Sequence record: PZ229304.1
DNA: 64,000 bases
Direction: 5' to 3' (one strand)
From: a phage
In this document: positions 3,413 to 29,428 of the stretch, one piece after another
Position numbering within the stretch: position 1 is the first letter of the stretch
How the letters are laid out: every line of letters begins with the position of its first letter
Notes under the pieces: generated by a model
Seen by the model: the letters and a program-made list of their open reading frames with translations, nothing else
Databases searched by the model: none
Told to the model about the DNA's origin: nothing
Position numbers and translations under genes: made by a program

Positions 3413-6187
3413 TTAGTTTACCAGTTTATTTATATCTGGTAAAAGATTTATTTCACCTAAAAAATCACCTTCACCTTCCTCTAACCAACTCTCATATGCT
3501 TGTGCATGATTATAGTTACCATCAAAAGAATCTGCAACAAATTTTTCTACAGTTTTTCGAGATGTGTCAGCGCCAAATACACCAAGTTTAATACCATTGA
3601 TCGGTAAAGTGGTACTTGTTGGTACTTTCTCTGTTGCAACACGGTTGATATCTATAATCTCCTGTACGGTTGTGTTCCATTGTAAGCATTTAACACAACG
3701 GGTATGCGCTACATACAGTAGGTTTCGCTCTGCCTCTTCCAGTCCTACCCATTCACCAGTCTTTTTATCATAGTTGGAAGGAAAATCATTAGCAACAATA
3801 ACCTGATCCCACTCCAAACCTTTAGACTTGTGTGCTGTAGTCAGTGTGACTTTTGCTGTAGGAGAATTTCTATGCGTTCTAAGTGTATGTGCTATAGTGT
3901 TTGCCTTACCAGAAACTACGATGTTTAACAAGCGTTTAGCATCTGGATCAGCCTCTGCACACTCAACAAATTCATTCCAGTCTGCGTAAGGTAATACAGT
4001 TTCATGTTTTACTTTCTCAATATCTCCTCTCCGAAGAGCATTAACACTATCTACCATAGAGATAAAATCCCTGGTATCTACGTTAATAATAATTTCTTCC
4101 CCATCTGCAATACGATCCATTGCCTCCATAAGCAAGGTTAAATTCTTGCGAAAGATGATAGTGTAAGGTTTTGTATAGTCTACAACATCTGATTTGTAGC
4201 TACCTACTACAGTATCAAAGCCTTTACCAACCAAAGGGTGACGCAAAGGTTCTTTATCGCTTAAAATCATATTGGCAATGTTTGCCACTTTGGGGCCAAA
4301 ACGGAAGCAAGCAGTTAATGGAAGCTCTGCTCCATACTTAGCTGTTTCAATCATCATATTAGAGCTACCTCTAAATTGATAAATGCAGTTGTGGCTAAGA
4401 ATTTCATTACCAAAGAAGTTAGCAGTATCCTCTACTTCAATATCATAATAGATACCTTCACTATCTACAATGTCCACAATTTCTTCTGCCGTTACAGTAT
4501 CACCATCTTTTACCAACACAGACATGCCTTTAAACAAACCCGCCGCCGGAATTAAAGTATATTTGGCGGTGTTCACAGAGGACATGCATTCTTTTAAAGA
4601 TGCAAACGGCACTATTTCAAGGATCTTTTGTGCAAAACTCAATGCTTCACGATAAGAATTGAAATATTTACGTACACGGTAACGACCTTCCAACTTAGCA
4701 ACACTTACGCTTACACCTGCTTCAATGAGTGAAGCATAGATTGACATTTCACTTTCTGTCCACTCAAAACTAACTTGTGTTCCTTTACAACCTTGTGCTC
4801 GCAAAGTCACTGTTAACATTTTTCTTTCATCTACTGCACAATTGATGCTGTGCCAATGTGGATAAGCAAAATGATAATCTTTATCCTCTAAAAGTTTAAA
4901 ACCGTTTTGTCCGAATTGTTCAAAAATGTTATTGATCCTTTCTTGATTAATGCCGCGTGAACTTGCTTCAAATACACAAGTAGGAATGCCATATTGTAAA
5001 CTGTATGCCATTTCTTTTTCCATAGCAGCTTCACGGTTTTCAACAATATCCAACACCCATAATTTCTGTGCTTTTTCAGAACGTGTACGTTGCCCCAGTT
5101 TAGAAAAACCTTCTTTATCATCGAATTTGTTAGTGATCCCTACTCGGAAACCTAAATCTTTCCTCCACATTAGGTATACCACCATCTGATCATCTTTCAG
5201 AACATAGGATGAAGCCCAAATACGATGGTTATGTGTCATATCTAAAGTTTTACCTGTGGCAGTAATAATATTCCTACCTTTTGTACGTGTAGATAAAGTC
5301 TTATTTGTTACTTTTCTAAATGTAATTTTACCATTAGAATAAGACTCTACCTTATCACCGATTTGTAGGTCTTTCATTGTAACCTGACCATTCTCGGTAT
5401 TAAGTACCGTGTTTTCCGACACACATTGGAATTCATCGCCCACTACCACAATTTGTTTTGCAGATTTAGCATTTCGCAGAATAGACAAGAATGCAGGGTT
5501 AACATCCTGGAATTCATCACCAAAAATAATGTCATAACCAAGGTCAGCACCTGATAATTCAAACAATTTTACATAGGTGTCATGCGTCATCAAAGTATCT
5601 GTGTTAGGATCGATGCGCTCTCGCCACAATTGTTTTGCATACTTAACTACTTCTGTAATTAGTTTGTGTTCGTTAATACCTTTTCTTTTAATATCTGCAA
5701 GATGTACACTAGGAAAATGTTTACGGCTGATAAAAGGATCATCCGAAAATTCAAACTTACCTACGGTTTGCTTGATCATTAAACCAATCATAGCACGAGT
5801 TAACAGTGTTTTCCCTCGTTTATCAATAAGATTATTAATCTTAAATTTCTTTGCTATCTCGCTACCTGTACCTGCAACGTTAACATACTGTCCTTCTGGT
5901 CGTGACAGTTTTGCACGTAAACGATGATCCAGGAATTGATAGCAAATAGAATGCAATGTACGGCATTCTACATTTAGTGGCATCTTACGTCGTGCTTCTT
6001 CTGCCATGCTTTTATTGAAAGCTAAGTAAAGAATGCGATCTTCTGTACTGTTAGCCAGCAAATAAAGTGTTGACGTTTTGCCTGATCCAGATTTAGCTTG
6101 GATAGTTAAAAAGCGATGGTCTGGAAAAGCCTCCTTAATAGCTGTTTGCTCTTCTGTTGGAGTGAAGCTCAACTCTTTCTTAGCCAT
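3413..6187 (-). CDS. UvrD/PcrA-like SF1 DNA helicase interrupted by an in-frame intein
   Basis: Walker A (AKSGSGKTST), motif II (GDEFQDVNP), motif III split as GDEFQ / C-IYQFRGS, motif V (TAHKSKGLEWDQVIV), motif VI (LLYVAHTRC). Start trimmed from TTG at 6226 to ATG at 6187 with RBS. Confidence 0.8.
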   Translation of the reverse strand: MAKKELSFTPTEEQTAIKEAFPDHRFLTIQAKSGSGKTSTLYLLANSTEDRILYLAFNKSMAEEARRKMPLNVECRTLHSICYQFLDHRLRAKLSRPEGQYVNVAGTGSEIAKKFKINNLIDKRGKTLLTRAMIGLMIKQTVGKFEFSDDPFISRKHFPSVHLADIKRKGINEHKLITEVVKYAKQLWRERIDPNTDTLMTHDTYVKLFELSGADLGYDIIFGDEFQDVNPAFLSILRNAKSAKQIVVVGDEFQCVSENTVLNTENGQVTMKDLQIGDKVESYSNGKITFRKVTNKTLSTRTKGRNIITATGKTLDMTHNHRIWASSYVLKDDQMVVYLMWRKDLGFRVGITNKFDDKEGFSKLGQRTRSEKAQKLWVLDIVENREAAMEKEMAYSLQYGIPTCVFEASSRGINQERINNIFEQFGQNGFKLLEDKDYHFAYPHWHSINCAVDERKMLTVTLRAQGCKGTQVSFEWTESEMSIYASLIEAGVSVSVAKLEGRYRVRKYFNSYREALSFAQKILEIVPFASLKECMSSVNTAKYTLIPAAGLFKGMSVLVKDGDTVTAEEIVDIVDSEGIYYDIEVEDTANFFGNEILSHNCIYQFRGSSNMMIETAKYGAELPLTACFRFGPKVANIANMILSDKEPLRHPLVGKGFDTVVGSYKSDVVDYTKPYTIIFRKNLTLLMEAMDRIADGEEIIINVDTRDFISMVDSVNALRRGDIEKVKHETVLPYADWNEFVECAEADPDAKRLLNIVVSGKANTIAHTLRTHRNSPTAKVTLTTAHKSKGLEWDQVIVANDFPSNYDKKTGEWVGLEEAERNLLYVAHTRCVKCLQWNTTVQEIIDINRVATEKVPTSTTLPINGIKLGVFGADTSRKTVEKFVADSFDGNYNHAQAYESWLEEGEGDFLGEINLLPDINKLVN
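4388..5425 (-). mobile_element. intein (346 aa) inside helicase motif III; central domain may be a homing endonuclease of unidentified type
   Basis: N-terminal Cys (codon aca at 5423-5425 on plus, TGT on minus), block B-like TxxH (MTHNH), C-terminal YDIEVEDTANFFGNEILSHN followed by +1 Cys (4385-4387); removing it restores the canonical motif III GDEFQ-CIYQFRG. Confidence 0.7.
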
Positions 6188-9642: not shown

Positions 9643-9909
9643 CTAATTACTGTTAGATCTGTATTCTGTCTTCCATTCGCAATGGTAAACTTCAACAGGT
9701 TCTAACTTCCAATGTTCAGGAACTAATTCAGGACAATATCTACAAAAGAGAAATAGATAGATAACTAAGACAGGTATTAAATAGTAAAATGGTATACGAT
9801 CATAACCATACTTACGAGATAACATGTAGACATAGAGATAGGGTATAACAATTAATCCTATAACTATAAGTAAGAAGAGAAGTATAAACCTTAGTGTAGT
9901 AACATCCAT
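9643..9909 (-). CDS. small membrane protein (two predicted TM helices)
   Basis: Hydrophobic stretches FILLFLLIVIGLIVIPYLYVYML and YYLIPVLVIYLFLF. Confidence 0.45.
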   Translation of the reverse strand: MDVTTLRFILLFLLIVIGLIVIPYLYVYMLSRKYGYDRIPFYYLIPVLVIYLFLFCRYCPELVPEHWKLEPVEVYHCEWKTEYRSNSN

Positions 9910-16754: not shown

Positions 16755-16967
16755 TATTTTGAAAATTTTTATTTTTATAAAAAGGGGTGTGGGTTTCATG
16801 TACGGAAATCCACCCTCTGAATAATATATCCAGAGTAAATATTATTCTGTACTCTGTTAATAAAGTATTTAATTTGTTTGTTGGACTATGGTATCTGATC
16901 TTTAAAAGGCATACTATCTCTTAACTACTACTTATAACAGAACAGTAAAATCATTTTTATAAAAAGG

Positions 16968-17170
16968 ACAAAATTATTTAAAGTTTTTACAGATTTTTGG
17001 GTACAAATTTTGAAAATGAAAAGTTCAAGTTTGGTCAAAATTATTTAAAGTTTTTGTATGTATTTCTATCCAGATTTTGAAAATGAAAACTTCAATTTTT
17101 TAAAAATTCCCCAGTTTATTTAAAGTTTTTTTGCCTTTTTCCGTAGAAAAATCAAAAATGAAAAGTTCAA
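16968..17170. repeat. three tandem direct repeats of about 67-72 bp (TATTTAAAGTTTTT ... TTTTGAAAATGAAAAGTTCAA), iteron-like
   Basis: Read directly in non-coding DNA. Confidence 0.6.
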
Positions 17171-17196
17171 TTTCGTGTTTTTATAGGTGTGCGTAT

Positions 17197-17306
17197 GATA
17201 ATCATTCTCATTTGTAAATGAGAATCATTATCATTTAAGTATGTAAGTGATAATCATTCTCATTAAGAGAATGAGAATCATTAGCAAATGAGAATTTTTC
17301 TCATTT
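17197..17306. promoter_or_regulatory. cluster of Fur-box-like palindromes (GATAATCATTCTCATT x2, AATGAGAATCATTATC)
   Basis: AAATGAGAATCATTATC matches the Fur consensus GATAATGATAATCATTATC at about 16/19 by hand. Confidence 0.45.
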
Positions 17307-17567
17307 AGAGAATAACGCGCAGGGGCGGTGTTTGTCTCGCGCTCCCGTGTCCCCTCGCCATACAATAAGAATAGCATAACCAACAACAAAAGCAAGCGAT
17401 TATTTTTATCTTTACATTTCTTTACAAATTTATTTTAGACGAGCTACCGGCGATCAACCTTCCAACCAGTGCCCCCTGGTATGTTAGCCCCGCCTTTACG
17501 CCGTGGGGGTGGCGCTTCCTCTTCTGTATGTAAAACAGTATAAGCCCGATCCCTGGGCTTGTCAAGA

Positions 17568-17834
17568 TTATTTTTTGTTTTCTTGCCAGGATAGGACACC
17601 TAACCAAAAATACATGTCGCCCCGCGCCCCTGGTGGGATCTTGCTTTCCCCGCCGCCACTGCAAGCCCATAGATAACCATTAGCGAACGGATCAAAGTTT
17701 TCTATTTCTTCCACCTTATGATCGCCCAGGTTGAGAACGGTTTCGACCTTTAAGCCCGTTGCGCTTGCTACCTGGTGCACCGTGCCGCCTTGCCAGCCCA
17801 ATGAGTGCATAAGGTGTAAAGTAGTATTTGTCAT
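17568..17834 (-). CDS. hypothetical protein (uncertain)
   Basis: 88-aa ORF with ATG and weak RBS in a GC-rich stretch where overlapping spurious frames are common. Confidence 0.25.
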   Translation of the reverse strand: MTNTTLHLMHSLGWQGGTVHQVASATGLKVETVLNLGDHKVEEIENFDPFANGYLWACSGGGESKIPPGARGDMYFWLGVLSWQENKK

Positions 17835-17933
17835 GGTATCGCCCTTTCTTTGATGTGCGCCCTGGTTGGCGCGGTAGAAAGATAATAGCCGTTTCCTTTA
17901 TAGATAGCAAGCAAAAAAAGAAATGAAAAAAGA

Positions 17934-18266
17934 TTAAAAAAATGGTTGACGTTCCTCACCTGGTAGCGTAATATTCATCTTGTCGAGGGGGGCAAGGCAC
18001 AACGACAATAAACAATAGGCGGGTGCAATGCATGACGGGCAAAGGTGAGGATCTCCACAATCCACCGTCACAATAACATTACTTATAAAAGGTTGATAAC
18101 GATGATCAAGAAAGAAAATAGCTTGACGGTTGGAACGATTAACGCTATCATTCTCGCCGTTCCATTTTGGATTGTAGTGGCGGTTGTTATTTTCTAAAAA
18201 ATATTCTTGACAACGTTTTTTAATCTGATAAGATGTATCACATAGGGCGGCAATAGTGCCGCTCAT
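17934..18266 (-). CDS. hypothetical Cys-rich protein (uncertain)
   Basis: 110-aa ORF with ATG start, but its 5' end overlaps the promoter/hairpin of the first plus-strand cassette. Confidence 0.2.
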   Translation of the reverse strand: MSGTIAALCDTSYQIKKRCQEYFLENNNRHYNPKWNGENDSVNRSNRQAIFFLDHRYQPFISNVIVTVDCGDPHLCPSCIAPAYCLLSLCLAPLDKMNITLPGEERQPFF

Positions 18267-18286
18267 AACAGAAGAGAGAAATAATC

Positions 18287-18559
18287 ATGGCATCATATAG
18301 CGCATCAATGATCGTAGCTGGCATCACTGGTAAACCTATGCGCGGTGGCGGATCTTTCGCTAACATCAATATTGATGGACGTTTATCCCTGGACGCAGCG
18401 ATCACCGTGGCACGGGAAACGTTTAAAAAAGAATGTAATTTCAATAAACAAGATTATCTCGGTTTCGCTATTGAAAAAACCGCGCGATTTGTGGATTATA
18501 AAAGCCCGAAAATGATCGACACTACACTAAAAGCGCAAGATGTAGCGTTTTTGCTTTAA
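18287..18559 (+). CDS. hypothetical protein (cassette gene)
   Basis: Preceded by TTGACA promoter, CACATAGGGCGGCA..TGCCGCT hairpin and AGAGAG RBS. Confidence 0.5.
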   Translation: MASYSASMIVAGITGKPMRGGGSFANINIDGRLSLDAAITVARETFKKECNFNKQDYLGFAIEKTARFVDYKSPKMIDTTLKAQDVAFLL

Positions 18560-18562
18560 GGC

Positions 18563-18622
18563 TTGACACTGAAAAATACTTTGTTAATATATACCACATA
18601 AGGCGGGGAAATGGTTTCCCGC
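18563..18622 (+). promoter_or_regulatory. sigma70-type promoter (TTGACA-N16-TAATAT) plus 5' leader hairpin GGCGGGGAAATGGTTTCCCGCC
   Basis: Read directly; same architecture recurs through the array. Confidence 0.6.
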
Positions 18623-18645
18623 CAAATCAAAGAAAGGGTAATGCA

Positions 18646-19008
18646 ATGAGCAAGCAAATCAATACTATCATGTTTAATCTGGTATCTTTCCGCGATGACG
18701 TGAAAAACCTTTCGCGTGGTGCAGTGGATGCACGGATCGAAAGCTATCGCACACAGATCGCAACGTTACCGCTGAAACGTGATCAACATGCCGCTAATAT
18801 GATGCTTGATGCTATGATTAAAAAGATGATTCAATGTGATCTTACTCTGGCTTATGAATATGCTGGCGATCTCTTTGTAACGTATAACAAGCCCGTTCCA
18901 GGTATGAGCACCACGGAAGAATTGCATGCCTTAAATCTGCGACAAGATGCATGGGATAACATGCGCCGTGTTATGGTATGGGTAGAAAGCGGCAAAATTT
19001 ACGCGTAA
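18646..19008 (+). CDS. hypothetical protein (cassette gene)
   Basis: 120-aa track ORF downstream of promoter-hairpin unit. Confidence 0.5.
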   Translation: MSKQINTIMFNLVSFRDDVKNLSRGAVDARIESYRTQIATLPLKRDQHAANMMLDAMIKKMIQCDLTLAYEYAGDLFVTYNKPVPGMSTTEELHALNLRQDAWDNMRRVMVWVESGKIYA

Positions 19009-19083
19009 AGATTGACATTACACGAAAACCTGATAAGCTATCTTAAAGCGGGAATAGTTCCCGCTTACATAGGATAAAACTTT

Positions 19084-19230
19084 ATGAAACAATATGTAAT
19101 GAGTATTCATACCAAAAACGGCGCTACTGTTACGACTCCGGCACGGTTTGCACTTGTAAACCGTTGCAAGAGACTAAAACGAGAGCTAAAAAATAACCGT
19201 GCAACCGGTTTTAAACGCTGGGGAGGATAA
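19084..19230 (+). CDS. small basic protein (48 aa)
   Basis: Own translation MKQYVMSIHTKNGATVTTPARFALVNRCKRLKRELKNNRATGFKRWGG; preceded by TTGACA promoter and GCGGGAATAGTTCCCGC hairpin. Confidence 0.3.
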   Translation: MKQYVMSIHTKNGATVTTPARFALVNRCKRLKRELKNNRATGFKRWGG

Positions 19231-19232
19231 TC

Positions 19233-19493
19233 TTGTTTTTTCTAAAAGTTTTTGATAATGTGATCGCTTTTGAACATGCTACGACGTTCGACCTGGCGAG
19301 ATACGCTATCAGGTTTAAAGATAATGTTTATCCCCGTGCTGGCGGCGGTTACACTATTTTTAATCATCGTAACGCTCAATTAACGGATATAACTAATCCA
19401 GGCCCTGGAGTGTATCGCATAGGCTGGCTACCGTCAAAAGACGCGGCAAGCATGTTTAAGGTATGTAAACTACTAACAGAAGAGGCGAACTAA
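19233..19493 (+). CDS. hypothetical protein
   Basis: 86-aa track ORF, TTG start just after GGAGGA. Confidence 0.35.
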   Translation: MFFLKVFDNVIAFEHATTFDLARYAIRFKDNVYPRAGGGYTIFNHRNAQLTDITNPGPGVYRIGWLPSKDAASMFKVCKLLTEEAN

Positions 19494-19494
19494 C

Positions 19495-20049
19495 ATGGGG
19501 CGTGAGTATGTGATCCAGTCCTGGGTAAAGCATGACGCTAATGATCCGCGCATAATACCAGATGACATGATCGATCACATGGTAGGGTATAGCGGGGAGC
19601 AGATAGGAAATCGAGCGGCAAAGAGCAACGGCAACACAAAGGCGCGATCCGTTCGCCCTGGTTGGCTGGCAAATGGTAACGCTGACATTGCAAGCGCCGC
19701 AGATCCAAGCGATGACGCTAAAAATAATCCCTTGTACAGCATTGATCCGGCTTTTAAGGTGTTGGAAGAGTATCCCGCTAAATTAGCCGCACTAGATAAG
19801 GCATACGAAGAAAAGCGCATGGCATGGACTGTATACAACACCGCTAAAATGGTGCTAGATGCAAAATTGATTAAAGCCCAGGAGAAGATCAATAAACTTG
19901 TTACCATAGCGCAAGAGGAAGACCAGGACGACCAGGAGGAAGAGGAAGAAATCATGCCTATCCTGGAAGAGGAAGAGATCCAGCCATACATGCCGACGGA
20001 AGAGGAAAAAAGACAAGCCCTAAAAAATTACGAAAATTGTATTGTGTAA
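19495..20049 (+). CDS. hypothetical protein with acidic C-terminus
   Basis: 184-aa track ORF; the longer antisense frame 19575-19991 is treated as a shadow. Confidence 0.45.
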   Translation: MGREYVIQSWVKHDANDPRIIPDDMIDHMVGYSGEQIGNRAAKSNGNTKARSVRPGWLANGNADIASAADPSDDAKNNPLYSIDPAFKVLEEYPAKLAALDKAYEEKRMAWTVYNTAKMVLDAKLIKAQEKINKLVTIAQEEDQDDQEEEEEIMPILEEEEIQPYMPTEEEKRQALKNYENCIV

Positions 20050-20195
20050 GGCTTGACATATGCAAACAAGCCCCGTAATATGTACCACATAAAGCGGGGC
20101 AACGCCCCATAAGGTGAAATAAAAAATCACTTGACACCTGAAATCAGTAAGCTATAATGCTTATATAGATTGAAACATTACTAAGGAATAAAAGC

Positions 20196-20375
20196 ATGGC
20201 TATTATTGCAAAGACTGAGATCGTAGGTTTAGATTCTATCATCCTGGCATATGAGGAAGCTATAGAAATGTATGTGGTTTCCTATGGTGATTATATCCGT
20301 GAATATAAATCTATTGATCTAGCTTTTGAATGTTATATTCGCCAGGTAAATAAAGCATACGATGATTATCGTTAA
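20196..20375 (+). CDS. small hypothetical protein (59 aa)
   Basis: Own translation; TTGACA-N17-TATAAT promoter at 20131-20160 and AAGGAA RBS. Confidence 0.3.
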   Translation: MAIIAKTEIVGLDSIILAYEEAIEMYVVSYGDYIREYKSIDLAFECYIRQVNKAYDDYR

Positions 20376-20470
20376 AAGTTTTAGTCTTGTGCTATTGACA
20401 ACGAACGATAGTACAAGCATAATAACTTTTATCGGGAATACTCCTAACTAATCAAAAGAGATTAAAGACT

Positions 20471-20836
20471 ATGGCTAAAAATATCAATGTTTCTGCTTAT
20501 GCTACCCTGGCTAACACTGCTAAAATTGAACTATCCAGCATTGAAGCGGTACATATTAGCGCCCGTCGCTGGTTTCAAAAGTCTTATGGTAATACTTATT
20601 TCTCTTTGATGGTTGACGTTGAGATCGGCGGTAAACTGATTGAAGTCGTTAACGTTCCGTTTCAATATGGCTACGGGGATCATTTTGATACCGTTGCCCT
20701 AGAAGAGTTTAGCAAGGTTATCAACCTGGAAGGTAAAGACTTTTCAAATTATGCTTACCTTTCCCGCTTTTGCCGTGATAATGGGATCGCTGTATACAGT
20801 CATGCAAGCGATGTTAAACGTAAAAAAGATTTATAA
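20471..20836 (+). CDS. hypothetical protein (cassette gene)
   Basis: 121-aa track ORF with TTGACA promoter at about 20394. Confidence 0.5.
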   Translation: MAKNINVSAYATLANTAKIELSSIEAVHISARRWFQKSYGNTYFSLMVDVEIGGKLIEVVNVPFQYGYGDHFDTVALEEFSKVINLEGKDFSNYAYLSRFCRDNGIAVYSHASDVKRKKDL

Positions 20837-20924
20837 AAAGCATTGACAGCACGAATAAAAAGCATATAATACTTATATCGAGAGCGGGAATAGTTCCCGC
20901 CTCACTGAAAAAGAGATTAACATC

Positions 20925-21164
20925 ATGGCTAAATCTAAAATGTACAACGGTCACAAAAATAAAACTCATTGGAATGTAAGCCTTTGGATCAACAATGATG
21001 AAGGTTTTTATAATCTTGCACGTGAATTTATTGCAGCTAACACCAATAAGAATGACGCAGCGCGTGATATGATGCTATTTCTTGAAAGTATGGATCAAGA
21101 TAAAACGCCAGACGGTTACAAGTTCAGTAAAACTGCAATCCGCGCCGCGATGGTTGGAATGTAA
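20925..21164 (+). CDS. hypothetical protein (cassette gene)
   Basis: 79-aa track ORF; TTGACA-N16-TATAAT and GCGGGAATAGTTCCCGCC hairpin upstream. Confidence 0.5.
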   Translation: MAKSKMYNGHKNKTHWNVSLWINNDEGFYNLAREFIAANTNKNDAARDMMLFLESMDQDKTPDGYKFSKTAIRAAMVGM

Positions 21165-21259
21165 AGGAGACATAAAAATGAAACATCGTTCGACCTATCT
21201 CACAAAACGTTTTAGCTTAGATCATAAATTGGGCTATTACGGAAGAAATAGAAAATAAT

Positions 21260-21319
21260 TTGACAACGTTTTAAATTAGTGTAATATATATCACATAGGG
21301 CGGGAAATGGTTTCCCGCC
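21260..21319 (+). promoter_or_regulatory. sigma70-type promoter (TTGACA-N17-TAATAT) plus 5' leader hairpin GGCGGGAAATGGTTTCCCGCC
   Basis: Read directly. Confidence 0.6.
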
Positions 21320-21341
21320 AAATCAAAGAAAGGTTATCATT

Positions 21342-21569
21342 ATGGCTATCGTTATTGTTCGCGTATCCGGTACGGTTGGAATCTCTCAGGTAGTAGCAGT
21401 TATCACAGAGAAGAAAGGAGATGATCTTCACTCCTCCTTGAATAGCTGGGCGGTCGCTAATTTTGGGCAATGGTCGAGCGTTGAGTACATCGAATCCTAC
21501 CAGGTGCCAACGATTAGCCTGACCGATCTGAATGTTGATCGCTTGTTGTGCCTGGATCAATTAAATTAA
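21342..21569 (+). CDS. hypothetical protein (cassette gene)
   Basis: 75-aa track ORF. Confidence 0.45.
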   Translation: MAIVIVRVSGTVGISQVVAVITEKKGDDLHSSLNSWAVANFGQWSSVEYIESYQVPTISLTDLNVDRLLCLDQLN

Positions 21570-21655
21570 AAATAATATTGACAAGATAACTAAAATCAGT
21601 AAAATGTAATGCATAGGGCGGCACTATTGCCGCCCTAGTGAGAGAGATTATCAAA

Positions 21656-21871
21656 ATGGCTAATATCCGCACACTGTTAAAAAATGCAAGTCAAGTTTTA
21701 TTTTCAGATGACGAATATTTTAATAAAGATATTACAGGCGTGAAAAATTTAAAAGACGTGAAGGATGTTATCGGTATCCGTGGATCTTTACGTAAAGGTG
21801 ACATATACGGTAACAAGGTGCAGTATAAACTGTCAAAAGATTATGATTTTACTTTGACAATTATTTCATAA
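21656..21871 (+). CDS. hypothetical protein (cassette gene)
   Basis: Trimmed to ATG at 21656 (MANIRTLLKN) because the track start lies inside the leader hairpin. Confidence 0.45.
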   Translation: MANIRTLLKNASQVLFSDDEYFNKDITGVKNLKDVKDVIGIRGSLRKGDIYGNKVQYKLSKDYDFTLTIIS

Positions 21872-21962
21872 AACTACTTGCAAACCTGGTAAAATAAAGT
21901 AAACTATATTCATTAAGGCGGTGGAATAGCCAACCGCCTAACAAAGAGAAGAGGAAAACATC

Positions 21963-22133
21963 ATGATCACTTTCGCTACCCGTGAAGCCGCTCGCAACGT
22001 TGCACGTAAAGTTAACGCCGCCAACCTGGGCGCTACGCTTAAAGCCCCGGTAAAAGATGAATCAGGAAAATGGATCTTCCCTGGTCTGCGTCACGCTGAT
22101 AAGCTGGGAACATTAACGTTAAAAAATAAATAA
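21963..22133 (+). CDS. small hypothetical protein (56 aa)
   Basis: Own translation MITFATREAARNVARKVNAANLG..; promoter, hairpin and AGAGAAGAGGA RBS upstream. Confidence 0.4.
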   Translation: MITFATREAARNVARKVNAANLGATLKAPVKDESGKWIFPGLRHADKLGTLTLKNK

Positions 22134-22140
22134 TATTCGC

Positions 22141-22199
22141 TTGACAGTAGCATCATTTATAAGTAAAGTAACAACAACGGCGGGAAATGGTTTCCCGCC
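22141..22199 (+). promoter_or_regulatory. sigma70-type promoter (TTGACA-N17-TAAAGT) plus leader hairpin GGCGGGAAATGGTTTCCCGCC
   Basis: Read directly. Confidence 0.6.
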
Positions 22200-22219
22200 A
22201 TCAATAAAGAGATAAGATT

Positions 22220-22579
22220 ATGAAATCAGCAAAAGCAATTAAAACTTACATTTTGTCGGCTATTTCTTTTGATGGTACTACAACCGAAAAAGAAAAAATC
22301 ACCGAACTGATGCGCCGTTTTAATTCTGAATACTGGTATCCCGATAATCAAAAACGTTACAATTATAACGTGATCAAGGCGATAGCCTCATGGTTACAAG
22401 GTTTACCGTCAGAAATCAATATTGCTTTTGATTATAACGAGATCGATCACTTGTTAATTGAATGGAAGTACATAAAAGAAACAAGCAAAGAAACAACCGT
22501 TACCCGTGAGCGGGAAAATTATTGGTTATATATTGCAAGCATGATCGTAATCCTGGCAAAACAGCATAACGTGGCGTAA
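22220..22579 (+). CDS. hypothetical protein (cassette gene)
   Basis: 119-aa track ORF. Confidence 0.5.
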   Translation: MKSAKAIKTYILSAISFDGTTTEKEKITELMRRFNSEYWYPDNQKRYNYNVIKAIASWLQGLPSEINIAFDYNEIDHLLIEWKYIKETSKETTVTRERENYWLYIASMIVILAKQHNVA

Positions 22580-22594
22580 TTAAGAGGAAGAAAC

Positions 22595-22732
22595 ATGAAC
22601 GCATCACAGCAGATCGAAAAATTCAACCGCAGCAAGGCGCGTAAAGATTGGAACGAAGAGATCACCAAAAAAGGTGACAAGCGGAACAAAACAAAGAGAG
22701 ATCGCAGCACAAAAAGATACTGGAACGAATAA
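22595..22732 (+). CDS. small basic protein (45 aa)
   Basis: Own translation; AAGAGGAAG RBS; terminator immediately after. Confidence 0.3.
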   Translation: MNASQQIEKFNRSKARKDWNEEITKKGDKRNKTKRDRSTKRYWNE

Positions 22733-22735
22733 CAA

Positions 22736-22762
22736 AAAAGGGCGCAATAAGCGCCCTTTTAG
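22736..22762 (+). terminator. intrinsic terminator
   Basis: AGGGCGCAATAAGCGCCCT hairpin plus T-run. Confidence 0.6.
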
Positions 22763-22850
22763 CTTATATAGAGGCTTGTTACCCATAGGCAATGGTAACG
22801 CCAGGGCAAGCCTATAAATCAACGTTAGACGGCTTTACAGGAGCTTTAAA

Positions 22851-23033
22851 ATGAGATTAGAAGAAATAAGCAAGGCACTAGCCCAGGGGCAAAGGTTAAA
22901 CGCCCGTTATCGTGATCAATATGGTTTCATAACTAGCGGCGTGATCCTGGGGATTGAAGACAATAAGATTTTTATTGACACGTTGAAAAACGTTGTATAT
23001 AGTGACAATATAATCTCAATAAAACATATATGA
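22851..23033 (+). CDS. hypothetical protein
   Basis: 60-aa track ORF. Confidence 0.35.
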   Translation: MRLEEISKALAQGQRLNARYRDQYGFITSGVILGIEDNKIFIDTLKNVVYSDNIISIKHI

Positions 23034-23041
23034 GGCAAGAA

Positions 23042-23443
23042 ATGAAAAAATTATTGATCGCTGGTTTACTCTCTTTTGGCATGGTTGGAACATCTAGCGC
23101 GGCGATATCCTCCACAGTAGCAGAATTAAGCGCCGTTGATGCAATGGAAAACGTCATGCTTATTAACAATGCGATCCCCGATGAAATCATGGAGGATTCA
23201 CACATGATCGCTTATGGTGCTGTTACACAACTAACGGCAAAAATAGATAAATCTATTGTTAATGGCTTAAATGAAGATGTACCATGTGAAATTATTACAA
23301 GTGTGCTGACTACTCAAAATTTTACGCCGTGGTTAAAAAGTATTCAAAAAGTACACAGTACAGCCGCAGATCGTAGCAATGAAAAACTAGTGTCAGCACT
23401 TGCAACGTATACCCTGGCAAAATGCACCGAGATAAAAGATTGA
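23042..23443 (+). CDS. secreted protein with signal peptide
   Basis: Trimmed to ATG 23042; MKKLLIAGLLSFGMVGTSSAA is a typical Sec signal. Confidence 0.5.
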   Translation: MKKLLIAGLLSFGMVGTSSAAISSTVAELSAVDAMENVMLINNAIPDEIMEDSHMIAYGAVTQLTAKIDKSIVNGLNEDVPCEIITSVLTTQNFTPWLKSIQKVHSTAADRSNEKLVSALATYTLAKCTEIKD

Positions 23444-23490
23444 CAACATAGAAAGCACGTTATAAGATACACACAACAAAGGAGAACTAC

Positions 23491-23787
23491 ATGAACGGCA
23501 TAGCTAAAACGTTTTTTCTTTTTTCTGGTGTAAATGATCCATCAATAAAAGTCGATAGTGTAAAAGAAAACAATACTATCACAGCTAAATTGTATCAAGA
23601 TGAAACAAATAACGTGCTAATCATTAATCTTAAAGAAATAACAAAAGGTTATTATGCTATTGCTTACCATGCGATTTATCATGCTGGTACTAGTGAGGAA
23701 GTGCAAACAAGCAACAACGAAAGCGCGGCGCTACCTGGTGATCTGGTGCTGGGCGTTATCAGTTTAATTGTCAATGATTTTTTTTAA
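23491..23787 (+). CDS. hypothetical protein
   Basis: 98-aa track ORF with TTGACA promoter at about 23443. Confidence 0.45.
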   Translation: MNGIAKTFFLFSGVNDPSIKVDSVKENNTITAKLYQDETNNVLIINLKEITKGYYAIAYHAIYHAGTSEEVQTSNNESAALPGDLVLGVISLIVNDFF

Positions 23788-24123
23788 GGAGTAAAACCAT
23801 GCCCTATTTACATTTATTTTTCGGTATCTTATTGACGGGATCTTTTTTCTTCTGTATGCTTGTTTCTATTGTAAACCACGTTTTAAGACATTAAGGAAAC
23901 AGCATGAAAATTATTCCCGTACAATATAGCGTAATAAATCCAGCATACGAGGAAGGAAGGAAAACAAGCATGGCTTTATGTTGTATTACTACTATAGCCA
24001 TGTTGTTATACATTGTGTTTTAATAGGTTTTATAGTTGTACGCTTTAAAGGCTTGACAATTTTTTGTTATGCTTTAAACTATATCTTGAAAACGGCAAAG
24101 GCCGCAAACAAAAGGGTAAAATT

Positions 24124-24447
24124 ATGAAATCTGTGATCGGTGTTTATTTGGATAACTCTGATTTTTTCTATCATCGCGCTCGTTTCCTTGATGCGATTGA
24201 AATGATAGAATCAGGCTTTAAAGAGTATCGCCTTGCACATGATGACCTGGAAGCATTACAGGGCAATAGTGTTTTTACATTGCAAGCGAAAGCACTATGT
24301 AAAAGCCGGATCGACATTGCGAGCAAAAAGATAGAACGCGGCATGTCCTGGTTGCGCACCGCAGAAATCAACATGGGGCAATGGCACGGCGAAAACTTAG
24401 AAAATAAACATACTTTTGTCAATGTAGAAAATATTGAAGATTATTGA
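24124..24447 (+). CDS. hypothetical protein
   Basis: Trimmed to ATG 24124 (MKSVIGVYLD). Confidence 0.45.
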   Translation: MKSVIGVYLDNSDFFYHRARFLDAIEMIESGFKEYRLAHDDLEALQGNSVFTLQAKALCKSRIDIASKKIERGMSWLRTAEINMGQWHGENLENKHTFVNVENIEDY

Positions 24448-24510
24448 TTGACAGCACACCTGATAAGTAGTATATTGTATCTCATAGAGCGGGGAAATGG
24501 TTTCCCCGCC
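24448..24510 (+). promoter_or_regulatory. sigma70-type promoter (TTGACA-N17-TATATT) plus leader hairpin GCGGGGAAATGGTTTCCCCGC
   Basis: Hairpin carries a compensatory G:C pair relative to the common GGCGGGAAA/TTTCCCGCC form. Confidence 0.6.
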
Positions 24511-24529
24511 TTAAAAGAAGAGATAAGCT

Positions 24530-24814
24530 ATGAAGATCACAAAAGCACTTTCCAACTATGCAGCACGTCGCGGCTTATGTTTAACCGTTGAAAACCTGGG
24601 GAAAGAAGATTTTTTGTGCTTTTGGGAGCTTGAGAATGATAATGAGTGGATCTTCTCTTATTCTATCTGCGAAGATCAAAACGGTTGTTTATTAACCTGG
24701 CGCGGTAATATCTATCTACCGGAAGAAATCAAAGAAGAATTGCCAGGCACGATCATGACTGAGAAACAGCTTAAGGAAGTGATCAATTTTGTAGGGCAAA
24801 ACATTAAAAAATAA
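24530..24814 (+). CDS. hypothetical protein (cassette gene)
   Basis: 94-aa track ORF. Confidence 0.5.
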   Translation: MKITKALSNYAARRGLCLTVENLGKEDFLCFWELENDNEWIFSYSICEDQNGCLLTWRGNIYLPEEIKEELPGTIMTEKQLKEVINFVGQNIKK

Positions 24815-24815
24815 T

Positions 24816-24875
24816 TTGACACCAGGCAAACAACGTAGTAAAGTTTATCACATAGGGCGGGAAATGGTTTCCCGC
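24816..24875 (+). promoter_or_regulatory. sigma70-type promoter (TTGACA-N17-TAAAGT) plus leader hairpin
   Basis: Read directly. Confidence 0.55.
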
Positions 24876-24897
24876 TCACAACAAAAGAGAACAAATC

Positions 24898-25068
24898 ATG
24901 ATCCCGACTATGTTTTACGTATCGCGCAAAGGTCACAATATTTTTTGGTCTGAAGATTTAAATGAAGCCATGACGTTTGCCCGTGATCGTGTTGCTATCG
25001 GTGGCGTTAACATTACTGTAACCGATGAAAACGGCATTGAATACTATAACGGCGACGATGAAGAGTAA
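24898..25068 (+). CDS. small hypothetical protein (56 aa)
   Basis: Own translation MIPTMFYVSRKGHNIFWSEDLNEAMTFARDRV.. Confidence 0.35.
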   Translation: MIPTMFYVSRKGHNIFWSEDLNEAMTFARDRVAIGGVNITVTDENGIEYYNGDDEE

Positions 25069-25115
25069 TTAATGAGGCGGGGGAGTATTCCCCGCCGTCA
25101 ATAAAGAGGTAAATC

Positions 25116-25385
25116 ATGAAAATATCATTTGACGTTGCAATCAAGGCCATCGAATCCGGTTACACCCTGGTAAAAGATGATAAGGCTAAAATAGTGCATC
25201 ATGTTAACAAGGAAACAGGCGAAAGCATGATCACATATAAAGCCGCCTACTTTCTCCAATCAGTAGCAGATCCGCGCGTACAGCGCCAGGTCACGGCGGC
25301 TATTGCTAAAAAATTATGTGCTTTACAGGGCACAAGTTTTAACGAGATCCCGCCGTGTTTTGACTGGTCGAGCTTGAAAAAATAG
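25116..25385 (+). CDS. hypothetical protein (cassette gene)
   Basis: 89-aa track ORF; hairpin variant GGCGGGGGAGTATTCCCCGCC upstream. Confidence 0.5.
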   Translation: MKISFDVAIKAIESGYTLVKDDKAKIVHHVNKETGESMITYKAAYFLQSVADPRVQRQVTAAIAKKLCALQGTSFNEIPPCFDWSSLKK

Positions 25386-25581
25386 TTTGACAATATGCGG
25401 TTATCTGGTAAAGTGTACCACGTAGGGCGGGGCAATAAGGCAACGCCCACTAATGAGGGTAAAATCATGTTAGAGAAAATTTTCACGGTTGTAGTAGTGG
25501 GCCTGGCGTTATCGGTTGGATTGGTTGCAACTATGGCTAACATGATCCTATCTTCCCACGGTATTGGATAAGGTGAATCAA

Positions 25582-25815
25582 ATGATCACGAATAAGACAG
25601 GTAAAACAGAATTTTTACGCGGCTTGCAAATAGGTAAACCTGAAATCTGGCATTGCACTAAAACACCACGTGACGAAATGAAAGATTTCACCGCTACTTT
25701 ACAACGTGTTAAAATATCTATCACACAGAAAAAAGCCTTGTTAGTAGTAGAAAACGAGATCCCGCAAACCAGATCGGGAATGATTTACATTTTACCCGTA
25801 ACGGTCACGGCGTAG
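25582..25815 (+). CDS. hypothetical protein
   Basis: Trimmed to ATG 25582; a 34-aa membrane peptide ORF lies just upstream (25468-25572). Confidence 0.4.
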   Translation: MITNKTGKTEFLRGLQIGKPEIWHCTKTPRDEMKDFTATLQRVKISITQKKALLVVENEIPQTRSGMIYILPVTVTA

Positions 25816-25943
25816 GCTTTTGGGATCGCCCTGAAATATACACTACTAACACCGCCAACCGCCTAACAAATGCGGCTAAATTAATGCCATCGGTGCATGC
25901 TTACATTGGTGAAGATAATTTGATTTATATTGAATAAAAAGTA

Positions 25944-26003
25944 TTGACACCGATCCCCCAATATGTTACTATTTACCACGTAGGCGGGAAATGGTTTCCC
26001 GCC
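25944..26003 (+). promoter_or_regulatory. sigma70-type promoter (TTGACA-N17-TACTAT) plus leader hairpin GGCGGGAAATGGTTTCCCGCC
   Basis: Read directly. Confidence 0.6.
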
Positions 26004-26026
26004 AGGTAATCAAAAAGGTAAATACT

Positions 26027-26416
26027 ATGCGCAACCTGGTTTCTGTTTCTAACGTTGAAAAATTCCAATCTTTACAGGGTATCGTTAACAACGTAGCGCC
26101 TTTTTTAGTCAATGGCTTGATTGCAAAGATGAAGAATAAACATCATGCCGCATGGTCTGCTTACTGCTTTGACAATGATGAAAAAGCGGCTGAAATGATG
26201 TTAAATATGCTGTTAGACAGTGTAGAATCATCTTTACCGGAAAACATCGCAGAAGAGATCACCTATCGTTATAATATGGCGATCACTTACCAGGAGGTTG
26301 CGCAATTTAATATGATGGACGATGACGAACAACAGGATCAGGAAATATTCTGGGAGTATGCGGATCGTCAATCGGCTTTTGATGAAAAGTTAGCGATGTA
26401 TTATAACGAATATTAA
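26027..26416 (+). CDS. hypothetical acidic protein
   Basis: Trimmed to ATG 26027 because the track start lies in the hairpin. Confidence 0.5.
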   Translation: MRNLVSVSNVEKFQSLQGIVNNVAPFLVNGLIAKMKNKHHAAWSAYCFDNDEKAAEMMLNMLLDSVESSLPENIAEEITYRYNMAITYQEVAQFNMMDDDEQQDQEIFWEYADRQSAFDEKLAMYYNEY

Positions 26417-26430
26417 TACACGGTAAAAGA

Positions 26431-26457
26431 AAGGGGCGCACTAAGCGCCCTTTTTTG
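26431..26457 (+). terminator. intrinsic terminator
   Basis: GGGGCGCACTAAGCGCCC hairpin plus TTTTTT. Confidence 0.65.
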
Positions 26458-26878
26458 TATTCTTTTTTCACAATGGAAGCGACACGTAAAGAATAGGCGT
26501 AAAGGTGGCGTAAAACCATCTAAAACCGACTGTAACCGCTTAAACAAGGTAGGAATGATTAATCACCTTACCAGGATGAAAAAGCTGTTATAAAGCTATA
26601 TAGGGCGTTTAAAGCACATAGGAAATAATTTGCTTTTTATCTTGCCTTTTATTCTGCTTTTGATTATTATTATGGAACGGGCGGCACCTGGGAACAGGGG
26701 AAGATAATCACCGGACGACCCCGCTATATATTGATAGCTAACATCTATCAAACAACAAAACATCAAAGGAATAAACTATCAAATCTTTACAATCTCATCT
26801 ATTGACCGGTAAATCATAGCAGTTTAATATTGTTTTTAGAGGGTAGAACATACCCAAAACGAAAACAGGAAAAAGAAA

Positions 26879-27115
26879 ATGAAAGAAGTCATGATCCTCA
26901 AAAAATCACCTATTTTACGTGGTGGCTTTATCGCTTACTCTGATGATCTGTTAATTGCAACGGTTGCAAAAATACTAAAATCAGAAGAGGATAGTAAAAA
27001 CGGCGTTTATCGTATCTGTTTCACCCGTGGGAAATTGCAAGGCAAGATCGCCTATGCTTTTGATTTACAAGATGTAAATGATAAAATCTGCGCTGTTATT
27101 GATTATGCAAAATAA
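26879..27115 (+). CDS. hypothetical protein
   Basis: 78-aa track ORF; TTGACC..TAATAT promoter about 26790. Confidence 0.45.
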   Translation: MKEVMILKKSPILRGGFIAYSDDLLIATVAKILKSEEDSKNGVYRICFTRGKLQGKIAYAFDLQDVNDKICAVIDYAK

Positions 27116-27202
27116 TTAACTTTCTTATTGACACCGGATCACGCTTACATTATTATTTATCACGTAGGGCAAATCATTTTAAACGGTAAACGAGGAATCA
27201 CC

Positions 27203-27586
27203 ATGAGCAATATCATCAACCTGGCGGCTACTGTAAACGGTAAAGATTTTAACGGCGCTGTAGATCGTGATCCTATGTGGTGCTTATCCGTGTTTAAAGG
27301 CGATCTGGTTGAAGTTAGAACAACCGAAGGTTATAGCGACGATTATAAATGCGAGATCCATTTACACAACTGGTACACGGGTAAAACTTATGCGCTGAAT
27401 CATGCGTTTATCGGCAAGGTTGAATATAGAGAAATGATCGACGAAGAAACGGGGCAAGATTTTAGCGATTATGTTTATATCCGTTCCGAGACATTAGCAG
27501 AACGTTTGATCGAGAAAATGAAAGCAAAAAATAAAATTAATTTAGCTCATTGGATTGATATAACAAACGATCCAGCTTATAAGTAA
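27203..27586 (+). CDS. hypothetical protein
   Basis: Trimmed to ATG 27203 (AGGAA RBS); TTGACA promoter at about 27131. Confidence 0.5.
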   Translation: MSNIINLAATVNGKDFNGAVDRDPMWCLSVFKGDLVEVRTTEGYSDDYKCEIHLHNWYTGKTYALNHAFIGKVEYREMIDEETGQDFSDYVYIRSETLAERLIEKMKAKNKINLAHWIDITNDPAYK

Positions 27587-27600
27587 ATGACACTTCACAC

Positions 27601-27629
27601 CAGGGCGCACAAAGCGCCCTTTCTTTTTA
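27601..27629 (+). terminator. intrinsic terminator
   Basis: AGGGCGCACAAAGCGCCCT hairpin plus TTCTTTTT. Confidence 0.65.
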
Positions 27630-27833
27630 CCTAAATAAAGATGATAGCTTTTACCTATCAAAAACGTTCACCGAAAAAAGTGAATAGATCGCGGTATCGA
27701 GCTAATCAAGGAGCAGATGAACAACCATACCATGAAGATCATAAGGCGCTTACAGCGTGTTTTAGACCGCTTATTTTTAATTTCTTCATGCAACTATTTG
27801 GCAAAAACAGCCTTTTTCTTGTCTTTCCTCTTA

Positions 27834-27907
27834 AATGATAATCATTCTTATTTATAGCTGATTATTTATGCAATAAACTGCATAATGCAATAATGATAAT
27901 CATTCTT
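27834..27907. promoter_or_regulatory. two Fur-box-like sites (AATGATAATCATTCTTA and AATAATGATAATCATTCTT)
   Basis: Second site about 16/19 to the Fur consensus by hand. Confidence 0.45.
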
Positions 27908-27909
27908 AA

Positions 27910-28255
27910 CTTATGACCATCTAACCTATAAAATAATAAGTTATCTAACTAAATTAAAACTAATTATCTTACTTTTATTTATAACTTACTGTTACTATCT
28001 CATTGATAACCTTATATTAAACAACAATAACTAATATAAATCATTACTAAGCTAAATATAATCTATCTAACCTTTAAAACTATAACTATAATCTATTGAA
28101 TTATTGCACAAAGTAACTATTAAATCGTTAGTAACATTACTAAATAATTAATATCCTATCTATTTATGATCTAATCTTTACATTCCTATCTATTACCTAA
28201 ATAATCATTTCATATAGTAATCATTTCATACAATAACTATAACAAGAAATATAAT
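27910..28255. other. G-poor, AT-rich non-coding tract with short reiterated motifs (CTAAC, CTATC, TAACT)
   Basis: Strong strand asymmetry visible by eye; no ORF. Confidence 0.5.
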
Positions 28256-28274
28256 TCGCAAGCGTATCATTAGC

Positions 28275-28440
28275 AGCCTATGCCGGACACATAGGCGGCT
28301 AATAATAACGCAACTACACACCCCACATAATAACTATCACCGATAGTTATTATTTGTGCTTATGTAGCTTGCAACAACTGCAAGCGCAACAATATACATG
28401 GTATATTGTATCCCTTACATTGTTGCGGTGCGTTATTATT
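28275..28440. repeat. cluster of nested palindromes / inverted repeats
   Basis: GCCTATG..CATAGGC, ATAATAACTAT..ATAGTTATTAT, CTTGCA..TGCAAG, ATATAC..GTATAT, and a long-range pair TAATAATAACGCAAC / GTTGCGGTGCGTTATTATTA. Confidence 0.55.
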
Positions 28441-28766
28441 AGCTAATGTTTAGAACATTGGCTATAATATAAGCTAAATCATAAGCTATGCAATAATAAA
28501 CATGGTGAATAATGACATTGATGATCATAATGCGCCACCTTCCAGGGGGCGCTATGTGAACACAAAGAAATCTTTCTTGTCAAGAAAATATTACTACTAT
28601 TGCGCAAAATTATTTATATCTGAATAGATGATTTTTTATGCTATTGCCCCCTTGATTATTACTATTTGTTGCCCTAACTATTGTCATTTGTTGAGCCTAC
28701 TTTCTTAAAAGCGCAATAAATCAGAATTATCTTGATTTTTAGTCGGTTTTATAGTACAGAAAGTAT

Positions 28767-28785
28767 GCAAATGATAATCATTATC
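28767..28785. promoter_or_regulatory. near-consensus Fur-box-like site GCAAATGATAATCATTATC
   Basis: 17/19 identity to GATAATGATAATCATTATC by hand. Confidence 0.5.
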
Positions 28786-28951
28786 AGCTATCTTCCACGG
28801 GTGGCACTATTTCACGCCAGATCATTTCATTTGGCAAGGTGTATATAGATGTTTAGAAATGCCAAGCCATTGATTTACTTAGAATTTATCTGTTTTGTTG
28901 TGAGTAGTGCCTTTCTTGCTCAGAAAATAATCAAAAGTCTTATAAGTCATT

Positions 28952-28983
28952 GAATGATAATGCAAATGATAATTATTCTCATT
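28952..28983. promoter_or_regulatory. degenerate Fur-box-like repeats
   Basis: GAATGATAATGCAAATGATAATTATTCTCATT. Confidence 0.35.
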
Positions 28984-29428
28984 GATATTTGAGGGGGACG
29001 GTCGGCAGAAATCGGGGGGCGCTGAAAATCGCGTTAAGCACCTCTCGCAAGCGAGCAGTATTTTGCGGCAAGTTATTGATATTATTGACTTTACGCTTAA
29101 GAAAAGGGGGCGTGTCGAAATAAATCGGGTATACCGGAAAATTTTTGTGGCATAGATATTTATTTGTCTATATTATGTACAAAGGGGTGTGTTAAAAATA
29201 ATAGGTATATATAGAATAATTGATAGGGAAATCCTATACTAAATCCTTCATTAATGATGTTCCTATGTTGCTGTTCTTGTAATAGATGAAAAGACGCTAT
29301 ATGATGTGTGGCATGAAACGTAAACTTATAAGATGCAAATAATGCTTGCATTGAATAGAAATGTCTATACACTGTGTTTCATAAGATATGCAATATCGCG
29401 CATAACAAACTACTAATGAGAGGTGTAA

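Follow-up and report, generated by a model that had tools for sequence, protein, structure and literature searches.

Fur-box-like palindromes around the cassette array and in the terminal repeat of a phi92-like phage, with counterparts near the ends of T5-like and lambda-like phages

Fur operators, the T5 stop region and lambda cos

Sites bound by Fur in Escherichia coli are found largely at promoters: of 363 Fur clusters, 303 overlap a promoter and 60 lie without an overlapping one (Chen et al. 2007, PMC2189734). In the same study a site upstream of nohA, scored at 22.3 bits, was gel-shifted by Fur, having earlier been recovered by in vivo selection for Fur-binding fragments; the paper makes no mention of prophage, lambda or cos (PMC2189734).

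Two-step DNA transfer is a feature of phage T5, in which a region annotated as an 'injection stop signal' (Repeat Region 3) comprises direct repeat C and palindromes E-J. A 2026 preprint describes this signal as repeats and palindromes only; A2, predicted to bind DNA, is described there as essential to the second step of transfer. Davison's T5 preprint stresses DnaA boxes and contains 0 occurrences of 'Fur'.

A site for a host DNA-binding protein within an end-processing region is represented in lambda by IHF site I1 of cosB. The P1 pac site contains an IHF site as well. Lambda cosQ is defined as 7 bp only, and we know of no role assigned to the palindrome on its left. The Fur box, the nohA Fur site, the T5 palindromes and cosQ are thus each already known singly. 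In the literature, as far as our incomplete coverage extends, we found no account of Fur-type sites as a common feature of phage ends, no equation of the cosQ-adjacent palindrome with the nohA Fur site (two Feiss-lab cos papers included) and no description of the T5 stop-region repeats as Fur-like.

Fur-like palindromes in a phi92-like genome

The DNA analysed here, referred to as the window, is a stretch of 64,000 nucleotides from a phage (sequence record PZ229304.1). By its sequence it is from a phi92-like myovirus of the genus Justusliebigvirus (Stephanstirmvirinae; phi92 group, with genomes of ~148 kb), being 96-97% identical to Escherichia phages ESCO8, J-01, Paula and other members of the genus and having the same gene order as phi92. 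Public records named 'Campylobacter phage A145/A110a/A150/C3' share ~95% identity with these E. coli phages and look mislabelled. The features discussed below are collected in Table 1.

Table 1 Positions of Fur-like sites and neighbouring features in the window
Feature	Position	Strand	Remarks
gp222-gp223 homologues	end at 16754		non-coding stretch next
Three tandem 67-75-bp repeats	16953..17173	.	directly upstream of the first cluster, in the same conserved non-coding module
First cluster	17195..17306	.	four to five Fur-like sites as nested palindromes
Fur-like core TGATAATCATTCTCA	17196-17210		1 mismatch
Fur-like core TGAGAATCATTATCA	17219-17233		1 mismatch
Fur-like core TGATAATCATTCTCA, second copy	17248-17262		1 mismatch
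Fur-like core TGAGAATCATTAGCA	17272-17286		2 mismatches
Weaker fifth Fur-like copy TGAGAATTTTTCTCA	17290-17304		
GC-rich conserved elements	17310..17530	.	directly 3' of the first cluster; comprise GCGCAGGGGCGGTGTTTGTCTC and, at 17436-17530, a ~90-nt block
gp224 homologue		minus	after the first non-coding stretch
Small-gene cassette array, gp225-gp248 homologues	18.3-27.6 kb	plus	~30 genes
Terminator hairpin of the last array gene (gp248 homologue)	27602-27620		
Non-coding DNA, 1.8 kb			after the array, then gp001 homologue onward
Two identical sites AATGATAATCATTCTTA	27834..27908	.	just 3' of the terminator of the gp248 homologue
Cores TGATAATCATTCTTA of the identical pair	27836-27850 and 27894-27908		2 mismatches each
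Direct terminal repeat, 343 bp	28694..29036	.	left end 28694, right end 29036
Perfect Fur core TGATAATCATTATCA	28772-28786	.	within the element 28767..28789
Fur-like core TGATAATTATTCTCA	28967-28981	.	1 mismatch; element 28951..28983, with an extra upstream GATAAT hexamer

Sites were scored by counting mismatches to the 15-bp Fur 7-1-7 core (TGATAATNATTATCA) and to the 19-bp Fur box (GATAATGATAATCATTATC), by comparison with shuffled sequences and by identity to bound operators, in place of a position weight matrix of curated sites. Across the window, the 19-bp box was matched six times with up to three mismatches, against 0.04 matches expected, and the 15-bp core ten times with up to two mismatches, against 0.6 expected. 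Eight of the ten core matches fall in the two non-coding regions named by an earlier note on this DNA. When expectations were derived from dinucleotide-preserving shuffles of each AT-rich region itself, region 16755-18286 contained five core matches (up to two mismatches) against 0.03 expected, and region 27587-29428 contained four against 0.08. The remaining matches in the window, at 4872 and 18094, are weak and probably due to chance. A perfect DnaA box (TTATCCACA) lies on the minus strand at 4857-4865, 6 bp from the weak Fur-like site at 4872-4886; this pair (4857-4886) is located inside a 937-aa minus-strand ORF, and it echoes the pairing of DnaA boxes with Fur-like sites in T5-like phages described below but may be chance.

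In Justusliebigvirus alia, a close relative with a complete genome of 148,442 bp, the homologues of the two regions hold all five sites with up to one mismatch and 8 of the 11 with up to two; the observation is therefore confirmed, with the motif confined to ~12 kb of the 148-kb genome. The earlier note, made from the letters of the window, had placed Fur-box-like sequences at four places in non-coding DNA on both sides of the cassette array, one of them at about 17/19, and had judged such matches unlikely by chance. These statements hold: Fur-like sequences are present at all four places and do bracket the array, the 19-mer at 28767-28785 matches GATAATGATAATCATTATC at 17 of 19 positions, and the shuffled background yields far fewer matches than the window.

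Within the first cluster, successive cores start 23, 29, 24 and 18 bp apart; some of these spacings are multiples of 6 and none of the cores overlap, whereas typical Fur operators have overlapping sites offset by 6 (or 3) bp. The palindrome arms (19 + 19 nt) are 95% complementary, and the single-strand DNA fold of 17185-17315 has a z-score of -7.2 (z = -7.2). Alignment of the cluster by blastn to 5,426 E. coli genomes returned one marginal plasmid match, the database being too large for short motifs.

The tandem repeats upstream of the cluster each terminate in an inverted motif of the TTGAAAATGAAAAGTTCAA type and look iteron-like. On the other side, the ~90-nt block (…CTACCGGCGATCAACCTTCC…GTTAGCCCCGCCTTTACGCCGTGGGGGTGGCG…) is GC-rich in AT-rich non-coding surroundings and is kept across Stephanstirmvirinae and Vequintavirinae, with counterparts in sequence pieces L023 (4530-4650), L026 (775-895) and L027 (790-915). 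Its consensus fold has 16 pairs, only one of them covarying, and it has no match in Rfam; a small RNA and a binding site for a protein are both conceivable. Across the searches of Rfam, run with gathering and with E-value cut-offs, the only matches were chance ones between plant microRNA hairpins and AT-rich palindromes, and a tRNA search found no tRNA.

The first cluster is single-copy in alia and nearly invariant within Justusliebigvirus (muut, Paula, phi92, alia, BME3), and its motif is also kept in Phapecoctavirus, 4MG and CR9. Phapecoctavirus has Fur-like sites at all homologous places, namely at the first cluster, after the gp248-like gene (where the site homologous to the 27.8-kb pair is TGATAACCATTATCA) and in the terminus region, and these are kept even though window positions 28390-29150 have no blastn similarity to that genus. 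In the Vequintavirinae, phage 4MG and Cronobacter phage CR9 have tandem repeats, Fur-like palindromes, a GC-rich box and the ~90-nt block, and a perfect core is present in 4MG; the tandem-repeat block ahead of the palindromes is in the same place in these two phages and differs from the repeats of the window.

The phi92 record annotates identical direct terminal repeats (DTR-L 1-343 and DTR-R 148270-148612), base 1 of phi92 corresponds to window position 28694, six independent records begin at the equivalent base, and the BME3 paper reports a 342-bp DTR determined by PhageTerm. Window positions 28694-29036 are therefore the direct terminal repeat, and so mark the physical genome ends. The annotation of BME3 puts the DTR 73 bp to the right, and that of phi92 was used instead. 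The BME3 record (PP239276; L005/L006) contains the terminal region three times, as equivalents of window 28281-29331, 28694-29111 and 27569-29035 in succession, which is probably an assembly or annotation artefact.

Two Fur-like cores, one perfect and one with a single mismatch, are held by the terminal repeat; the perfect core begins 78 bp in from the left end of the genome, and the other ends 55 bp from the right one. The 27.8-kb pair lies ~800 bp before the repeat, and ~11.6 kb, or 7.8% of the genome, separate the first cluster from the right end. Since neither the pair nor the cluster is at a physical end, the term 'end element' fails to cover every site.

A 37-nt unit, ATGCAAATGATAAT.ATT.TCA…N~12…GGGG, is present in three copies, within the terminal repeat and around it (28512-28548, 28765-28801 and 28960-28996); the first copy has a degenerate core, and a G-run lies ~12-15 nt 3' of each Fur-like core. 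Between the 27.8-kb pair and the terminal repeat, the 331 bp at 27910-28240 are poor in G, with 12 on the plus strand against 136 A, 129 T and 54 C, and a comparable G-poor tract adjoins the repeat region of T5 (sequence piece L003, 1060-1240).

With respect to transcription, the first cluster is flanked by the convergent gp223 and gp224 homologues. A scan for sigma-70-type promoters detected no promoter-like site of 10/12 or better over any Fur core, and the only matches inside the palindromes were at the chance level of 9/12. Within the array (18207-27168), at least eight junction units consist of a TTGACA-N17-TAnnAT promoter, a stem-loop (GGCGGGAAATGGTTTCCCGCC) and then a ribosome-binding site, and none of these units, at least eight in number, contains a Fur core. 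The junction units resemble the promoter-early stem-loop cassettes of T4-type phages, and the gene content of the array differs among relatives. The lack of a core over any promoter, together with the Fur-free promoters of the array, argues against iron control of flanking transcription, an interpretation which the earlier note had put forward and which the convergent genes around the first cluster also disfavour.

Identity to Fur-bound operators was seen at two places. Lambda (48450-48466) and prophage Qin, upstream of nohA, both contain the exact 17-mer ATGATAATCATTATCA found at 28770-28786. The 15-mer AATGAGAATCATTAT at 17217-17231, with the half-site variant TGAGAAT, is also present in the operator of the aerobactin iucA promoter. 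The sequence taken to be that promoter is present at 100% identity in >640 plasmids, where some 20 bp separate it from iucA downstream. Symmetrised and compiled into a count matrix, 36 non-redundant phage sites read AAATGA[T/G]AAT-N-ATT[A/C]TCATTT with an unconstrained centre base, in agreement with the 7-1-7/9-1-9 Fur model. Searches by tblastn for a phage-encoded Fur among these phage groups revealed no homologue, the matches being mislabelled host contigs only. Host Fur genes are carried by two such contigs, 'Listeria phage LM 4-11-1' and 'Salmonella phage S.Kent 1-2-1', which look to be of host origin; the Listeria 'phage' match was therefore discounted.

Collectively, the window sites have in common with E. 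coli Fur operators the consensus, the clustering and the stretches identical to the nohA/lambda site and to part of the iucA operator; they differ in being located off promoters, between convergent genes or in a terminal repeat, with no iron-related genes nearby and, apparently, no overlapping 6-bp register. We strongly infer that the palindromes are genuine Fur-type sites and that fragments of the window carrying them would be bound by Fur.

Counterparts in T5-like and lambda-like phages

Alignment by blastn matched the first cluster to T5 and many T5-like phages at the 'injection stop signal', with ~75% similarity over ~100 bp to the T5 stop region. The latter is a series of units such as GAAATGCAAATGATAATGATTCTCATTTAAG, labelled in AY587007 as direct repeat C and palindromes G/H, and a Phapecoctavirus unit is identical to a T5 unit at 30 of 31 positions. 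The T5-like phage Kenya-K45 (L016, whole genome, 108 kb) has only five sites with up to two mismatches: one perfect core at 200-214, 200 bp from the left end, and four sites in the stop region. In T5 itself (AY692264, L019), a perfect core at 233-247 lies inside dmp (…EDDNDYQ…), 233 bp from the left end; it is the only perfect T5 core outside the stop region, and a T5-like phage of Salmonella has kept it. In a T5-like phage of Vibrio, two perfect DnaA boxes next to small genes are flanked on both sides by Fur-like sites.

The inner end of the T5 terminal repeat varies by record, being placed at 9749 (the major nick) in AY692264, at 10139 in AY587007 (Davison) and at 9846 in Kenya-K37 (OQ291034). 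By the Kenya-K37 and Davison coordinates, the Fur-like cluster of T5-like phages lies ~0.5-0.6 kb inside this end, not directly at it; the repeat end of AY692264 would put it ~30-200 bp away. The T5 cluster adjoins the major nick annotated in AY692264 and is close to Davison's calculated first-step shear point.

In its setting, the T5 stop region resembles the first cluster of the window: both are non-coding clusters between convergent genes, lie ~8% of the genome from an end, and border small early genes transcribed largely towards that end. Several differences were apparent. T5 has a ~10-kb terminal repeat at this place, compared to 343 bp in the present phage group, and paired DnaA boxes (IRD'-spacer-IRC'), none of which lie by the first cluster; T5 also encodes A1 and A2, which lack homologues here, and phi92-like phages are not known to transfer their DNA in two steps. 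No DnaA box of the form TTWTNCACA occurs in 16755-18286 or 27587-29428, and the window as a whole shows no excess of such boxes; the 'DnaA box' reading of T5 therefore does not transfer and was rejected for both regions. Fifteen T5 pre-early proteins, including A1 and A2, were aligned by tblastn to the window and to the whole alia genome, and none gave a match at E<0.01, so that no common phage protein explains the motif. A parallel between the right-terminal 11.6-kb block of phi92-like phages and the first-step block of T5, in share of the genome (~8%), small genes, direction and repeat-cluster border, is speculative.

Lambda (48.5 kb) contains exactly one perfect core, at 48452-48466, which is 37-51 bp from the right cohesive end. 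It lies just left of cosQ, whose coordinates were reportedly given by Wieczorek and Feiss (2001). The corresponding 55 bp of the phi80 record are annotated 'cosQ; aka R4 region'. The palindrome is separated from GGGTCCT by 5 bp in phi80 and mEp213 and by 6 bp in lambda, and the upstream flanks are unrelated. In addition, the last ~130 bp at the right end of N15-like PY54 hold two cores, one perfect and the other with a single mismatch, and DLP12 has a variant palindrome beside its cos site.

The cos regions of lambda-like phages (lambda, phi80, mEp213, Qin, DLP12) thus have in common with the terminal repeat of the window a (near-)identical core ~50 bp from a chromosome end, with diverging flanks. 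They differ in having cohesive ends and the cosQ sequence GGGTCCT 5-6 bp off, whereas the phage of the window has direct terminal repeats and its perfect site is followed by GCTATCTTCCACGGGTGGC. The comparison with IHF sites in packaging signals has a limit of its own, in that the protein proposed here would be Fur, a metal-sensing repressor, and not a dedicated bending protein.

As judged by these matches, the motif recurs in unrelated phages which have only the host in common. The earlier note had described the sites as flanking the array, which they do, but had missed that two of them are inside the 343-bp DTR, that the first cluster is T5-stop-like and that the 17-mer equals the cosQ palindrome.

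Possible roles of the palindromes

We favour, with a probability of about 0.42, the reading that the ligand would be host holo-Fur and that the sites would serve as cis elements of chromosome end or junction architecture, and not as promoter operators; the link to ends is a post hoc observation on three phage groups. The phage would recruit abundant host Fur as an architectural or roadblock factor, like IHF at lambda cosB. Tightly bound to the concatemer, Fur could be a marker or a speed bump shortly ahead of the point at which the packaging motor has to stop and cut; in lambda the site precedes cosQ and cosN in the direction of packaging. Another option is that Fur loads on the first-entering DNA or at the border of the first block, where it could pause, anchor or protect the DNA. 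End processing or DNA delivery would in this way become sensitive to host iron status.

It is unlikely, in our estimate, that the sites are targets of a phage-encoded protein (a terminase small subunit, a virion protein or an A2-like factor) and merely resemble the Fur box. The 21-bp extent of the palindrome, its strongly conserved AAA/TTT flanks and the T/G alternation could mean a specificity of its own, a predicted DNA-binding protein is at hand in T5 A2, and the close identity of the Phapecoctavirus and T5 units (30/31) would be in keeping with joint horizontal transfer of a site and the protein that binds it. However, neither the window nor a whole Justusliebigvirus genome encodes a homologue of the T5 pre-early proteins, the packaging systems of lambda, T5 and phi92 are unrelated and yet the motif is common to all of them, and the core is identical to sites experimentally bound by host Fur, with a centre base as free as it is for Fur. 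A phage regulator with a similar motif, which the earlier note had listed among its options, is likewise improbable given the recurrence in T5-, lambda- and rV5/phi92-like phages and the lack of T5 pre-early or Fur homologues. We consider it quite improbable that the palindromes are a DNA structure or replication-origin module, extruding as AT-rich cruciforms or hairpins, to which the Fur likeness would be incidental or accessory. The strong predicted fold of 17185-17315, the three tandem repeats upstream, the conserved GC-rich block downstream and the classical description of the T5 stop region by repeats and palindromes are all compatible with such a module, but each site in the DTR, lambda and T5 dmp is a lone palindrome of 15-21 bp, too short for stable extrusion, the sequence is conserved and not symmetry alone, and the two window regions are free of DnaA boxes.

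Two further readings keep Fur as the ligand. Replicating phage DNA could titrate Fur, another option of the earlier note, its presumed high-affinity sites acting as a decoy that would derepress host iron uptake for the iron enzymes of the phage, e.g. ribonucleotide reductases; there are 9-10 sites per genome, derepression of the regulon by multicopy Fur sites is the principle of the in vivo selection that recovered nohA (PMC2189734), and the phi92-group genes listed in the BME3 paper include an anaerobic ribonucleotide reductase. This reading nevertheless leaves unexplained the placement in the terminal repeat, next to cosQ and at the T5 stop region, lambda has one site only, and T5 degrades host DNA within minutes, so that derepression of the host would be pointless there; we assign it a low probability. 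An equally small chance is given to iron-responsive control of transcription, including a Fur roadblock or insulator between convergent or tandem units. Fur is primarily a repressor, the sites are located between transcription units, and the 60 E. coli clusters without an overlapping promoter offer a precedent (PMC2189734); against this, the promoter scan and the Fur-free array promoters described above leave no promoter under any core, and a convergent-gene setting offers nothing to repress.

A stronger form of the favoured end-architecture reading, which we regard as doubtful, is that Fur is an unrecognised host factor at the ends of three unrelated enterobacterial phage groups, needed there for efficient end cutting or DNA delivery. 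The three settings would be beside cosQ in lambda-like phages, in the stop/terminal-repeat region of T5-like phages, and in the terminal repeat and at the block border of phi92/rV5-like phages. If Fur were needed at these ends, infection would be coupled to the iron status of the host. As a corollary, delivery of phi92-like DNA may start with the right-terminal 11.6-kb early block and pause at the 17.2-kb cluster, as that of T5 does at its stop region.

Fur boxes are textbook promoter operators, and a role at the ends of three phage groups would add a metal sensor to the host factors of phage DNA processing. The unexplained injection-stop signal of T5 gains a concrete candidate ligand, and attention is drawn to an unstudied, perfectly conserved palindrome beside lambda cosQ, among the best-studied of packaging sites. 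Since phi92-like and rV5-like phages are used in therapy cocktails, iron at sites of infection could affect their efficiency, if the sites are functional.
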